Below are positions 2,738 through 6,214 of a DNA stretch of 7,640 bases, in pieces (the first letter of the stretch is position 1; each line of letters starts with the position of its first letter). Source of the DNA: a virus (Duplodnaviria > Heunggongvirae > Uroviricota > Caudoviricetes); IMG/VR virus record IMGVR_UViG_2778261354_000005. One strand, given 5' to 3'. Under the pieces are notes generated by a model. The model saw only the letters and a program-made list of their open reading frames with translations. It searched no databases and was not told where the DNA came from. The position numbers and the translations under genes were made by a program.

Positions 2738-3733
2738 TCACCCCCTGAATCCTTCCGGGATCTGGCTGTAGTCCACGTTGTCGTAACTGGCTTTGAAGTA
2801 CGGGTCCTCGCGTCTGGCTGCAGATACCGCAGGAACTTCCCAGGATTCTTCGAAATGACGATCCGGACCAAAGAACGTCGACGCCTGCTTCACGAACTGG
2901 GTACCGGTATTTCCAGAGACACGCACCCAGGCGGCATAGCGTTTCACACCGTCGAGCATGGTTTCGGGTGTCACACCTTCCCTGATTCGGGCTTTCCAGG
3001 CTTTAAAAGCGGCGGATTTTGAATTACCACCAGCACGTTTGGGATATTCCTGCCAGGCCTGTTCAAATTCCGGTGAATATTCCTGTCTGGCAGAACGCGC
3101 TGGTGCAGACGCGTCAGCGGATGCGCCAATAGTGTTTTTAGTCTCCGTTGTAATCTCTGTAGTAATCTCTGTAGTAATCTCTGTATTTGTATCAACATTC
3201 GGCGTATCCCCTGTTCCGTTATGACGTCGGGGGGTGTTCCGTTTTAACGTAATAGCTGTATCGCTGATTGCATTATTGCTGTTACTTTCTGGCGAAACAG
3301 AAGAAGGTGTGGTGATGGCCGCAATTGCCTGTGGGTTGATCCCGACAAACAAAATATTGCTGCATTTCACCCCATCGAGCATTTCCACCGTGCGTAAATC
3401 CAGAGTAATAAACCCTGCATCGCGCAGACGCTTCAGCGCATCTGCGGTTTCCCTTTTCCCGAAACCAAACTGCTCAGCAAACGCCTGGTAGCTTCTTTGC
3501 AGTTTGTCGCCCTGAAAACGCTTGCGATATCCCAGCAACGCTCCGGTGTGCTCATCCCTGACCTCTGTCGGGCGGTACCAGTAAACGATCTCTGAAAGCA
3601 GAGCGATAGCCGTCGCATCCGGACGCCCACTGGGTAGTCTAATATATTTCCACCAGGTCGCAGGTGTAACATTGCCGGAAATATTAATTTGACCAATAGC
3701 CATAACTTCCGGTGTGGGGGCGTAACGGCTCAT
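2738..3733 (-). CDS. Replication initiator, lambda O-like in architecture (N-terminal wHTH, repeat-bearing linker, C-terminal domain)
   Basis: 331 aa. It occupies the expected position in the early operon. The N-terminal region resembles the Phage_rep_O/replisome-organizer type (..AIALLSEIVYWY..ETADALKRLRDAGFITL..). The linker is encoded by tandem 12-bp repeats, as with lambda ori inside O. The C-terminal motif EFEQAWQEYPKRxGxxSKxxAFKAW is common in phage replication proteins. ATGA start overlap with a GGAGG SD. The family assignment is by eye. Confidence 0.7.
   Translation of the reverse strand: MSRYAPTPEVMAIGQINISGNVTPATWWKYIRLPSGRPDATAIALLSEIVYWYRPTEVRDEHTGALLGYRKRFQGDKLQRSYQAFAEQFGFGKRETADALKRLRDAGFITLDLRTVEMLDGVKCSNILFVGINPQAIAAITTPSSVSPESNSNNAISDTAITLKRNTPRRHNGTGDTPNVDTNTEITTEITTEITTETKNTIGASADASAPARSARQEYSPEFEQAWQEYPKRAGGNSKSAAFKAWKARIREGVTPETMLDGVKRYAAWVRVSGNTGTQFVKQASTFFGPDRHFEESWEVPAVSAARREDPYFKASYDNVDYSQIPEGFRG
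3138..3185. repeat. Tandem 12-bp direct repeats (GTAATCTCTGTA x3 perfect, plus one degenerate copy); candidate ori iterons inside the initiator gene
   Basis: 3150-3161, 3162-3173 and 3174-3185 are identical, and 3138-3149 matches 8/12. The repeats are in frame and encode TEIT-TEIT-TEIT. Confidence 0.8.
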
Positions 3734-4029: not shown

Positions 4030-4250
4030 GCCACACCTCCCAGACGCTTAAACATTTTTCCGGAGCAAAAGGCTATAAGCGGCATACTGACGCGGTAATT
4101 ACGGCCCAGCGGTTCACAAACCACCTTCTGACATTCACGGTCAACCAGGCTAACACGTAGAACATGCCCAGCAGGCGTGGTGTACCACTGACCCGGACGA
4201 GGACAACGGAAAGTATGATTGGTAAACCGTTTGAAAATATTCCGGATCAT
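4026..4250 (-). CDS. Hypothetical 74-aa protein (possibly DUF4222-like)
   Basis: ATGA overlap with the Rha ORF stop and GTGA overlap with the next gene. The size and the W-Y..G..V.V pattern are reminiscent of small lambdoid early proteins. The family call is weak. Confidence 0.55.
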   Translation of the reverse strand: MIRNIFKRFTNHTFRCPRPGQWYTTPAGHVLRVSLVDRECQKVVCEPLGRNYRVSMPLIAFCSGKMFKRLGGVA

Positions 4251-5407
4251 TTGCGCCCCCTTACCTCTGAAGGGTTCAGCGACAAATTTATGAGACAGGC
4301 CAGCGCCGAAGCATCATTAATATAGTCATATAAGCTAACAGCCAGCGGAGATTCGGCTTTTGCCAACATAGGATAAAGCTGCTGCAGCCAGACCTGATGA
4401 ATTGATGAAATGTAGGAACAGAGAACGCTGGCGTTATGTGCAACGTCGCTCGGTACAGCGGGCTTTGAAAGCTGTTTCTCCATCTGGTTAAAGGCATTTA
4501 TGTATGCCTCTTTGAACCGGGCAGCACGTTTACCCGTGAAACCCATAGCAAGAAACGCAAAACCGTCTCGTGTGATTTGATAGCAAGGGAGCTTGCGTGT
4601 ACCACCGTTCGGTTGATTTACCGAAATCGATGTCTCCGCAAAATTGCGGGCACAAAACTCTGGGGAACAATCCAGAGTGCGGATCTTTTTCAGCACATCG
4701 TCGTGACGCTTGGAGAAGAAGTTGGCAACAGCCAAAGAAGTGGTAACGGCCTGGCCGTTGTCAATGGTGATTTCAGGTTGAGTGAGGGCTGGGATCGTAG
4801 CCATGATGGCAGCCTCCGTTGACAGTGAAAAACTTCCACCACCGGAAACGCCAATTTCACTGGTGGTGAACTGGACGGGGTTGGCGTAACCGGCGTCAAC
4901 GGAGACCGGCGCACCTTTCGGTGCCCCCGCCCAGCCCACCATAATCTGGATGTGAGCAAATGCGGACGATAAAAAAGACGCTGGCGCGTCATACATCGCC
5001 GTTGACAATTTCAGGACGCCAATCCCGGCACCCGCTTTATAAGGTGCCTGAGCAGTGTAACGTCCCGGAATTGCAGAATCAATATGCTGGTGGTCCTTCA
5101 CACTCAACAAAATCACGCCTGAATTTCCACAAAGGACTAAAGCACTCATGCGGGTAGTCTTTGCGAAGATAGATAACGCGCTGTGTTTCTGGCTCCCAAC
5201 GAATAACATGGACATAAAGCCCTCTTCCGTCACGAAACCAGCGGTTAAGTTCCTGCACAACTCGCCCCCCACAGTCAGGTAAAGTTCTCTGTGGTTACTT
5301 ACAGCCAGGTGATTTGGTAATCTGCATTCATGCCGTAACAACAGGTGTTCAGCGACGCTGACCACCAGCTGTTGCGACAAACGGTTATTTGCCGTTAAAC
5401 TATTCAT
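4247..5407 (-). CDS. 386-codon ORF: an unknown 201-aa N-terminal region fused in frame to a Rha-family phage regulatory protein (C-terminal 185 aa)
   Basis: Residues ~212-330 carry the Phage_pRha pattern (..TTSLAVANFFSKRHDDVLKKIRTL..YQITRDGFAFLAMGFTGKRAARFKEAYINAF..). The ATG at 5407 overlaps the YmfL-like stop (ATGA). There is no stop codon between the N-terminal region and the Rha part. Confidence 0.65.
   Translation of the reverse strand: MNSLTANNRLSQQLVVSVAEHLLLRHECRLPNHLAVSNHRELYLTVGGELCRNLTAGFVTEEGFMSMLFVGSQKHSALSIFAKTTRMSALVLCGNSGVILLSVKDHQHIDSAIPGRYTAQAPYKAGAGIGVLKLSTAMYDAPASFLSSAFAHIQIMVGWAGAPKGAPVSVDAGYANPVQFTTSEIGVSGGGSFSLSTEAAIMATIPALTQPEITIDNGQAVTTSLAVANFFSKRHDDVLKKIRTLDCSPEFCARNFAETSISVNQPNGGTRKLPCYQITRDGFAFLAMGFTGKRAARFKEAYINAFNQMEKQLSKPAVPSDVAHNASVLCSYISSIHQVWLQQLYPMLAKAESPLAVSLYDYINDASALACLINLSLNPSEVRGRK
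4802..4817 (-). promoter_or_regulatory. Internal ribosome-binding site plus ATG at the start of the Rha domain (alternative 185-aa product, 4247-4804)
   Basis: The minus strand reads GGAGG (4817-4813), then ctgccatc, then ATG (4804-4802). This is a consensus SD with 8-nt spacing, exactly where Rha-family proteins normally begin (MATIPALTQPEITI..). Confidence 0.55.
5289..5304. promoter_or_regulatory. Weak SOS-box-like CTGT-N8-ACAG motif inside the 5' part of the 386-codon ORF
   Basis: CTGTGGTTACTTACAG has an intact core, but the spacer is GC-containing and the flanks are non-consensus (CT..CC), so predicted affinity is low. Confidence 0.25.
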
Positions 5408-5961
5408 GCGTTAGTTTCTCCACAACCAGAAGCAATCGACGCCACGACGCCCGGAGCTGCACACTCGCGGGCGTTACTATTTTCTGGAGCGCAGAAGATT
5501 TTGTAGACCAGTGCTGCATGCTCCTGGAGCTTCGAAATTGAAAGATACAGTTCGTCGTTAATTGCTGTCTTCTCATGCGGTTCCACTACACCGTCTTCGA
5601 TTGCTGAACGAATCTGTTTTGAATAACTGCCGATCTGTTCAATGACTTCCAGTAAACGCTGGTTAATATCGGCATTGTCCACATCCTCGACGTCAGGAAG
5701 AGACACAAAGACGCCATTTGCAGACTGCGCCACAGCGTCAGCAATGAAGTGAGTGCCACCAGCACGTTGTAAAATCATTGCCCATCCCAGCGGGAAAATC
5801 TGATCGCCATCGGCACGAAGGCGGTTAAATAATGCGTTCTCTGTTACATCCAGCCACTCAGCAGCTTCAGCGTAACCCTCCGGCAACGCCGCGATAGTTT
5901 TTCTGACAGCTTTCACGTACCACTCAGGCTGTTTTTCCACTTTCCAGTTATGATTACCCAC
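5404..5961 (-). CDS. ymfL: YmfL-family putative regulatory protein (occupies the cII-like position after cro)
   Basis: 185 aa. GTG start with a GGAGG SD 6 nt upstream, and an 8-nt overlap with the Cro-like gene. The size and position (immediately after cro in an e14-type immunity region) match my recollection of e14 YmfL. The assignment rests on synteny and memory, not a search. Confidence 0.6.
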   Translation of the reverse strand: MGNHNWKVEKQPEWYVKAVRKTIAALPEGYAEAAEWLDVTENALFNRLRADGDQIFPLGWAMILQRAGGTHFIADAVAQSANGVFVSLPDVEDVDNADINQRLLEVIEQIGSYSKQIRSAIEDGVVEPHEKTAINDELYLSISKLQEHAALVYKIFCAPENSNARECAAPGVVASIASGCGETNA

Positions 5962-6214
5962 GGCTTACCTCCTGTTCCTGTGGTTTAAACCCATTCTGGT
6001 TTTGGCTAGATTGAAAACGTGCCGGATAAAGAATCTGCATTTCGCTGATTTCACCCTTAAAAAAATTGGCCAGACGTTCTGCAAGATCGATAGATGGAAT
6101 TTGTTCCAGTCTTTCAATACGACTCAGCGTCGCTGGATTGACCTGAACGCCAGCAGCAACATGCTGCAAAGTAAATCCGTGCGTCTTACGCACATTCCGT
6201 AATGGTGATTGCAT
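5954..6214 (-). CDS. Cro-like XRE-family HTH regulator
   Basis: 86 aa, divergent from the repressor gene. The HTH segment is ..FTLQHVAAGVQVNPATLSRIERLEQIPS... A GGAGG SD (6223-6219) lies 4 nt before the ATG at 6214. Confidence 0.8.
   Translation of the reverse strand: MQSPLRNVRKTHGFTLQHVAAGVQVNPATLSRIERLEQIPSIDLAERLANFFKGEISEMQILYPARFQSSQNQNGFKPQEQEVSRG

Follow-up and report, generated by a model that had tools for sequence, protein, structure and literature searches.

The long open frame upstream of a prophage Rha gene probably joins an overlapping ymfM/DUF4222 pair to an RNA control module of the P4, P1 and Gifsy-1 type

Why should the frame of a phage Rha-family gene stay open for hundreds of nucleotides upstream of a start codon that carries its own ribosome-binding site? 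The question is posed by a 7,640-nucleotide (nt) stretch of Caudoviricetes DNA (IMG/VR record IMGVR_UViG_2778261354_000005), referred to below, at its full length, as the window, in which an earlier note made from the sequence alone had described 4805-5407 as an unknown 201-amino-acid (aa) protein region fused without a stop to Rha. The open reading frame (ORF) concerned, the regulator at its end and the gene that precedes it are as follows.

4247..5407, minus strand: 386-codon open frame (386 aa), annotated by the NCBI Prokaryotic Genome Annotation Pipeline (PGAP) as 'Rha family phage regulatory protein' WP_001087333.1
4247..4804, minus strand: Rha-family regulator proper, 185 aa from M202; PF09669 and TIGR02681
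5404..5961, minus strand: ymfL-like gene; NCBIfam NF041471 (E=7e-49) and PF06892; its TGA overlaps the ATG of the long ORF

The frame indeed runs on the minus strand without a stop for 603 nt, from 5407 down to M202, whose ATG at 4804-4802 follows GGAGG at 4817-4813 after a gap of 8 nt, and the GGAGG-N8-ATG reported earlier is read at 4817-4802. At the other end the ATG at 5407-5405 shares an ATGA with the stop of the upstream gene, which confirms the proposed coupling, and NF041471 identifies that gene as YmfL. From M202 on, the coding signal is clean: PF09669 matches residues 222-311 (E=8e-28, 97.3 bits against a cutoff of 29.9), TIGR02681 scores 90.7 bits (cutoff 45.95), and the ratio of nonsynonymous to synonymous variation (pN/pS) is 0.36 and 0.23. 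The gene occupies the position that the antirepressor holds in P1 and Gifsy-1.

What lies upstream of M202 is, we think it quite probable, not a protein domain: 4805-5407 reads as a composite, in which a ymfM/DUF4222 pair is followed by a P4/P1/Gifsy-1-type RNA control module placed before Rha. By its sequence the locus is a lambdoid-prophage member of the class formed by P4 eta/kil-CI-seqA, Gifsy-1 isrK and P1 c4, and its biology is an instance of a mechanism already described for P4, P1 and Gifsy-1. The RNA genes and antisense targets in codons 103-201 are the following.

4971..5047, minus strand: isrK / P4 seqA-like small RNA; Rfam RF01394, 62.2 bits against a gathering threshold of 50, model positions 1-77 of 77
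5022-5016 and 5007-4999, minus strand: a1 and b1, respectively, inside isrK; they co-vary with the C4 loops
4990-4977 plus U6, to 4971, minus strand: hairpin and U-run of the intrinsic terminator of isrK, from a terminator scan
4940..4942, minus strand: conserved AUG (M156) of the leader, at the 5' end of C4; in frame with Rha, 138 nt upstream
4859..4946, minus strand: C4 / P4 CI-like antisense RNA; Rfam RF01695, 81.4 bits against a gathering threshold of 45, model positions 1-87 of 87
4905-4894 and 4887-4881, minus strand: C4 loops b' (the loop of hairpin 2) and a', respectively
4854-4848 and 4824-4813, minus strand: C4 target sites a2 and b2, respectively; b2 takes in the Rha Shine-Dalgarno sequence (SD) GGAGG at 4817-4813

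The full-length RF01394 match brings with it that family's two 5' hairpins and Rho-independent terminator. RF01695 belongs to clan CL00128 and includes P4 CI, and the C4 of the window has the family's architecture of a long closing stem and two hairpins, with compensatory changes; in P1 and P4 the mature RNA is cut out of a leader transcript by RNase P. Window positions 4813-5022 were compared with alleles L031, L039, L043, L064, L079 and L085, and over seven distinct alleles the fold of 27 pairs is paired in 189 of 189 cells, nine pairs having changed on both sides, against 34-49% pairing when the structure is slid along the alignment as a control. The loops and their targets co-vary three ways. 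In the window, cognate duplexes comprise 12 bp for b'/b2 (two of them G-U pairs), 9 bp for b'/b1 and 7 bp for both a'/a1 and a'/a2, and b', b1 and b2 switch together in six specificity types, as do a', a1 and a2 in two. The cognate b'/b2 duplex is 10-12 bp long and covers GGAGG in five of the six b types (it is 6 bp in L079), compared with mostly 4-7 bp, and up to 9 for the L064 loop, in non-cognate combinations. The isrK terminator was assessed by the hairpin and U-run of each allele, as its covariation is unusable in a fixed register, the alleles swapping the hairpin in different registers.

The amino acids specified by this DNA behave differently from the nucleotides. Read in the main frame, isrK has a pN/pS of 1.16 and a2/b2 one of 1.01, and since these values lie close to one, the 3' half of the region appears to be constrained as RNA rather than as protein; amino-acid identity is also lower than nucleotide identity over the RNA segments.

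As an observation in its own right, the loop of the L064 type may pair over 7-9 bp, with G-U, with some foreign b2 sequences, which hints at partial cross-immunity. Tandem isrK-C4-Rha arrays also occur, namely in L130 (three C4 copies at a 656-nt spacing), L168 (two copies), L039 (2681-3527) and L193; some of them hold short Rha-like ORFs of about 120 aa, and b-specificities differ between neighbouring copies.

Where, then, does this module begin? Two further features mark its left side.

5099..5101, minus strand: GTG-103, at which the RNA-Rha module begins on its left side; homologue of an ATG that in other genomic contexts follows an SD and opens the Ash-Rha ORF
5054..5082, minus strand: candidate sigma-70 promoter for isrK; TTGATT at 5082-5077, a 17-nt spacer and TACACT at 5059-5054

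The left boundary was read from at least 15 loci in which the DNA upstream is unrelated and identity to the window sets in at about 5085-5101, which places ymfM and DUF4222 outside the module; the PHROG profiles 995 and 3960 begin at much the same point, at residues 103-106. An isrK promoter inside the module is probable. The candidate lies within the conserved part, overlaps the DUF4222 stop and would place +1 at G5047, 6 nt past TACACT, and an unrelated type of junction carries TTGAAA-17-TATAGT at the same position.

Both ends of the module were also followed in a sample chosen independently of any ORF, namely 120 viral contigs picked by their conserved C4 ends alone. Where a C4 locus is followed by an ORF, an SD and ATG almost always stand 48-61 nt beyond the C4 3' end, a conserved spacing that supports M202 as the native start of Rha. 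In contexts other than ymfM, an in-frame ATG, often as GGAGG-N7-ATG, stands 51-57 nt upstream of the isrK +1, and this SD-ATG at the edge of the module comes 10-20 nt after the stop of the upstream gene. It corresponds to codon 103 of the window, with ATG AAG CGC CAC CAG CAT ATT GAT elsewhere and GTG AAG GAC CAC CAG CAT ATT GAT in the window.

The same sample bears on whether the long frame means anything to the phage. Among 32 distinct modules of the Rha subfamily (N-termini MATIP, MTTLP and similar) there is no stop site in the Rha frame across the module, and the other two frames contain 16/15 and 14/12 polymorphic stop sites. On the strength of zero stops in one frame against 12-16 in each of the others, selection keeps the long frame open, and what is preserved appears to be an open frame rather than a fold. 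Module lengths, moreover, are exclusively 243 or 246 nt. These findings count against the best-surviving alternative, that the long frame is purely an annotation artefact, untranslated beyond ymfM, and that only the 185-aa Rha is made, along with YmfM and the DUF4222 product. Such an artefact would explain the values of pN/pS near one over isrK and a2/b2, the presence of a probable promoter and an intrinsic terminator inside the frame and the inconsistency of PGAP on identical open frames, and it could point to other C4 subfamilies, in which the downstream start is preceded by an in-frame stop at 32 of 75 unique C4 loci. It leaves without a cause the absence of stops, the two lengths found and the fact that independent upstream contexts each supply, at the edge of the module, an ATG in frame and often a GGAGG with it, and in P4 the full-length Eta is reported to be translated, its translation preventing termination (PMC10111431). 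We therefore regard a pure artefact as unlikely.

A different objection is that protein families do cover the region. The earlier note recognized no family in it, which proved incorrect, as residues 117-212 match PF10554 Phage_ASH (window 4772-5059, minus strand; E=4e-21, 76 bits against a gathering threshold of 26), a match that crosses M202, and phrog_821 covers residues 61-386 end to end. Does this establish a genuine folded 'Ash' domain fused to Rha, with the RNA matches secondary? The matches to PF10554 and PHROGs 821, 995 and 3960, the maintenance of the ORF and a pN/pS of 0.59 over the C4 segment could be read in that sense, and Ash has been treated as a domain of unknown function (PMC8951638). 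The Ash profile, however, falls on isrK, C4 and a2/b2 in the window, in SfV and in P4 eta; both isrK and C4 lie inside the match in the window, together with a sub-threshold Rfam match to a1b1. Because the profile spans the RNA genes, membership in PF10554 describes the DNA and not a demonstrated fold. Variation follows RNA pairing and loop/target complementarity rather than codon position, amino acids are less conserved than nucleotides, and the composition is rich in Gly, Ala and Pro, as expected of translated GC-rich stems. Pfam 'Ash' is accordingly the conceptual translation of the isrK/seqA and C4/CI genes within eta-like ORFs, and in P4 it forms the N-terminal part of Eta. Its amino acids seem to follow chiefly from what the RNA genes require, and a true Ash fold seems to us very improbable. 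The 'function' of Ash is, on this reading, RNA-based immunity together with ribosome transit. PF10554 has also served as a marker for P4 epsilon, which was called Ash (PMC8628076); P4 epsilon matches PF25738, not PF10554.

The other half of the supposedly unknown region contains two genes, read in different frames.

5102..5407, minus strand: ymfM-like segment, codons 1-102 of the long ORF; BLASTP to e14 YmfM E=8e-8; phrog_1170
5079..5258, minus strand: DUF4222 gene, 59 aa, in another frame; GTG start after GGGGGG; overlaps codons 50-110 of the long ORF

That this part sits where e14 carries ymfM was rightly seen in the earlier note: it has the same place after ymfL, and residues 1-99 are homologous to e14 YmfM at the above score, the BLASTP alignment taking in residues 1-89, with a phrog_1170 match at E of about 1e-9 to 1e-10. 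The overlapping gene matches PF13973 DUF4222 (E=9e-14, 51.1 bits against a cutoff of 27). Selection over the overlap was examined in a diverged set that joins the window and e14 to 18 loci of other Enterobacteriaceae and gave 17 unique sequences. Codons 1-49 are constrained as protein (pN/pS 0.36 in window-type loci and 0.33 in a diverged group, compared with 1.1-1.2 for the other frames over the ymfM-only N-terminal part in that group), and codons 50-102 are free of stops, with no amino-acid constraint of their own. Over the overlap it is the DUF4222 frame that is conserved, with pS 0.65, pN 0.13 and pN/pS 0.20-0.21, and the ymfM frame has a pN/pS of 1.46; in 56 unique sequences the variation in main-frame codons 51-90 falls on position 2, which is position 3 of DUF4222. 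In the diverged loci the DUF4222 starts are of the form GGAGG plus ATG.

The ymfM frame nevertheless avoids stops throughout the overlap. It is stop-free in all 15 of 15 distinct variants, compared with 3-9% when synonymous codons are drawn at random, and sites at risk use safe codons exclusively, which vary among themselves: Val18 is GTC or GTT and never GTG or GTA, and Leu4 is CTT or CTC and never CTG. The e14 pair has the same arrangement, with DUF4222 (L004:6002-6181) inside ymfM (5823-6161). Considering the constraint on DUF4222, the avoidance of stops in ymfM and the purifying selection on its N-terminal part, we conclude from these comparisons that ymfM and DUF4222 form a pair of genes overlapping out of frame across Enterobacteriaceae. 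A literature search for a link between DUF4222 and ymfM found no paper, and the overlap is, together with the reading of Ash as translated RNA, among the most original by-products of this analysis. In the study that described SfiC, the ymfM ORF was expressed from pBAD24; the cloned DNA carries both ORFs and the second frame is unmentioned (10.1101/2020.11.19.390815). If the overlap is real, the published filamentation phenotype of SfiC still has to be divided between the products of ymfM and DUF4222.

Two internal methionines were considered as starts and rejected. The SD-like site GAAGAGGG-cttt-ATG at M65, pointed out earlier, is present; its use as a start is unsupported, as the 'SD' belongs to the coding part of DUF4222, in whose frame the changes it shows are synonymous. 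For M87 there is nothing in support beyond the choice of PGAP in one genome.

A ymfM-type end, at about 110 codons with a stop some 20 nt before the DUF4222 stop, was not found in the window, where the frame runs for 386 codons. The earlier note offered the loss of a stop by an upstream gene as one explanation, and in part this holds, as the ymfM frame does join the downstream ORF where an e14-type ymfM ends. A recent, lineage-specific stop loss or frameshift that left an insignificant pseudo-fusion could claim that the e14-type stop lies about at GTG-103 and that orf45 is seemingly fused to anrP in S. dysenteriae (PMC4825925), but it is largely refuted by the comparative data and hardly credible, the same frame being open in 56 of 56 unique related sequences with identity down to 77%, Citrobacter among them, at least 80% of the ORF being covered at a place in 529 of 5426 complete E. 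coli genomes, and the stop at the junction that would mark two separate genes being absent from every member of the Rha subfamily.

How could such a locus work? By analogy with P4 eta/kil and with Gifsy-1 isrK-orf45-anrP, the internal promoter would make isrK and C4 in the lysogen, and C4 would occlude the Rha SD at M202 and may cause premature termination, leaving little short Rha. Once the early operon, with its cro-like gene, ymfL and ymfM, is transcribed, ribosomes would enter the long frame at the ymfM ATG at 5407, coupled to ymfL, and would cross the terminator and the C4/b2 stretch. Their transit would suppress termination and bypass C4, and so yield N-extended Rha, in a form of 386 aa from the ATG at 5407 and possibly also one of 231 aa that begins at M156. 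The idea of two products from one frame, put forward in the earlier note, fits the nested design of P4 eta/kil, the avoidance of stops and the conserved SD and ATG of M202, and is plausible on these grounds. Only tentatively do we go further and propose that the 386-aa polypeptide, with an N-terminus like that of the cell division inhibitor YmfM, is made after induction, that its translation acts as a switch against both termination and C4, that isoforms of 386, 231 and 185 aa result and that DUF4222 is a fourth protein, encoded out of frame by the same DNA.

Several points weigh against the composite and the switch proposed for it, and they are best taken together. The promoter scan, run at a threshold of 9/12, made no call on TTGATT-17-TACACT, which has 8/12 consensus matches, and for this reason the promoter is something that we infer, as are its use, RNA processing and every translation start at the locus. 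GTG-103 has no SD in the window, and the long form, if translated at all, may start at 5407 or elsewhere. The significance of the stop depletion is approximate, the alleles being related and recombining. The pN/pS of 0.59 covers the spacer as well as C4 and is ambiguous. Finally, the end of the leader ORF varies in position among other C4 subfamilies, that of Gifsy-1 AnrP among them, which, taken with the in-frame stops mentioned above, means that translation through C4 is no general requirement of such modules. A general coupling of the orf45 type was likewise considered and rejected; the AUGA geometry occurs in Gifsy-1 and two relatives only, and elsewhere the leader ends 3-38 codons in.

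Of 5426 complete E. coli genomes, 1624 have matches to the ORF; the RNA stretch is present in 339 phage records, many of them Shiga toxin (Stx) phages. In the E. coli records examined (L001, L002, L003), PGAP treats the same open frame in two ways: genomes identical here receive a single 'Rha family' protein of 386 aa, and UPEC129 receives a 59-aa DUF4222 together with a Rha protein of 300 aa that starts at M87. None of these records annotates isrK or C4, and both versions of the annotation hide two regulatory RNAs. As the module is part of the early-right operon in lambdoid prophages and comes in several mutually non-cognate types, it bears on cross-immunity and on the control of induction. 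A region first taken for an unknown protein segment reads instead as two Rfam RNA genes, a terminator, antisense targets and a candidate promoter in its 3' half, and as a ymfM-like segment overlapped by a DUF4222 gene in its 5' half.

Downstream of Rha the early operon apparently continues by serial translational coupling: Rha ends, and a small ORF of 74 aa (4250→4026) begins, in a shared ATGA within 4245-4252 on the minus strand, and this ORF is in turn coupled to one of 99 aa. Further along, at 2738-3733 on the minus strand, an ORF of 331 aa contains TEITTEITTEITTE as a tandem repeat and has no Pfam or NCBIfam match; the PGAP name for the identical protein is 'LvrA C-terminal domain-related'.

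Among known systems, the immI region of P1/P7 (c4-icd-ant1/ant2) reportedly encodes the C4 antisense RNA with its a' and b' loops. There, a1/b1 lie upstream and a2/b2 downstream of C4, and b2 covers a ribosome-binding site; the gene in the antirepressor position has two in-frame starts, and immunity types vary through changes in loops and targets. The window has each of these properties: a C4 with a' and b', flanking a1/b1 and a2/b2, b2 on a ribosome-binding site, two in-frame starts for the gene in the antirepressor position and loop/target variation of the immunity-type kind. It differs from P1, where a translationally coupled icd stands between b2 and the antirepressor gene, in that no icd-like ORF intervenes between b2 and the regulated gene, only 8 nt separating b2 with its SD from the Rha ATG, and in that a gene resembling a cell division inhibitor, ymfM, stands upstream of the RNAs.

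For ymfM the counterpart is e14, in which the gene encodes the cell division inhibitor SfiC, reported to inhibit formation of the FtsZ ring (10.1101/2020.11.19.390815). In both elements ymfM follows ymfL through an ATGA, begins with a homologous N-terminus ('MNSLT..') and is overlapped by DUF4222. In e14, however, ymfM stops after 112 codons and a replication gene comes next, and Rfam found neither isrK nor C4 there, whereas in the window the frame runs on into the RNA-Rha module.

Gifsy-1 has the same order of a1b1/isrK, C4 and a gene in the antirepressor position, which there is anrP, and shares with the window the conserved AUG at the C4 5' end (M156 in the window, the start of orf45 in Gifsy-1), a leaky isrK terminator and a leader ORF conserved in nucleotides and variable in amino acids, as PMC4825925 reported. 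That study described IsrK-dependent translation of orf45 and anrP and a processed RNA of about 80 nt from the region, compared the system to P4 CI and noted the apparent fusion in S. dysenteriae cited above. At 34131-34214 on the minus strand of Gifsy-1 (L225) we find an Rfam C4 match of 69 bits that coincides with the published orf45/STnc1160, and on this match the orf45/STnc1160 RNA is a bona fide member of the C4 family. The leader ORF of Gifsy-1 is out of frame, has 45 codons and stops on AUGA, whereas that of the window is in frame and so gives a fusion, and no long ORF begins upstream of isrK in Gifsy-1. No homology was detectable between AnrP and the Rha of the window, which implies that the RNA module drives different cargo genes.

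A further likeness is to the satellite P4. According to the model summarized in PMC10111431 from Forti et al. 1999 and Sabbattini et al. 1995, a truncated Eta (Kil) is translated on read-through, and full-length Eta is made from the upstream promoter only, in coupling with the upstream gene; the same work notes that the Rfam C4 and isrK models detect relatives of CI and seqA in Bro-network genes. In the P4 record (L223) the eta ORF (8812→8168, minus strand) overlaps the end of ORF88, holds isrK/seqA and CI, matches the whole Ash profile and continues in frame via '..EAAIMATTLTPSHPE..' ('..EAAIMATT..'), and an obsolete 137-aa 'cI protein' coding sequence in that record matches Ash and contains the C4-family hit that is CI RNA. 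The window repeats this plan. Its long ORF begins at or over the end of the upstream gene, in an ATGA with ymfL; an isrK/seqA element with its terminator and a C4-family RNA lie inside that single ORF; an in-frame nested start falls within the same '..GGAGGCTGCCATCATGGCTAC..' motif; and the N-terminal part as a whole matches Pfam Ash. In P4, on its side, the interval from the first AUUAUGG motif to CI is greater by about 78 nt, and the long ORF of the window is longer by the 102 ymfM-like codons. The host element of the one is a satellite, and that of the other the early-right operon of a lambdoid prophage; and past the nested start, where P4 carries the C-terminus of Kil, the window carries a Rha domain.

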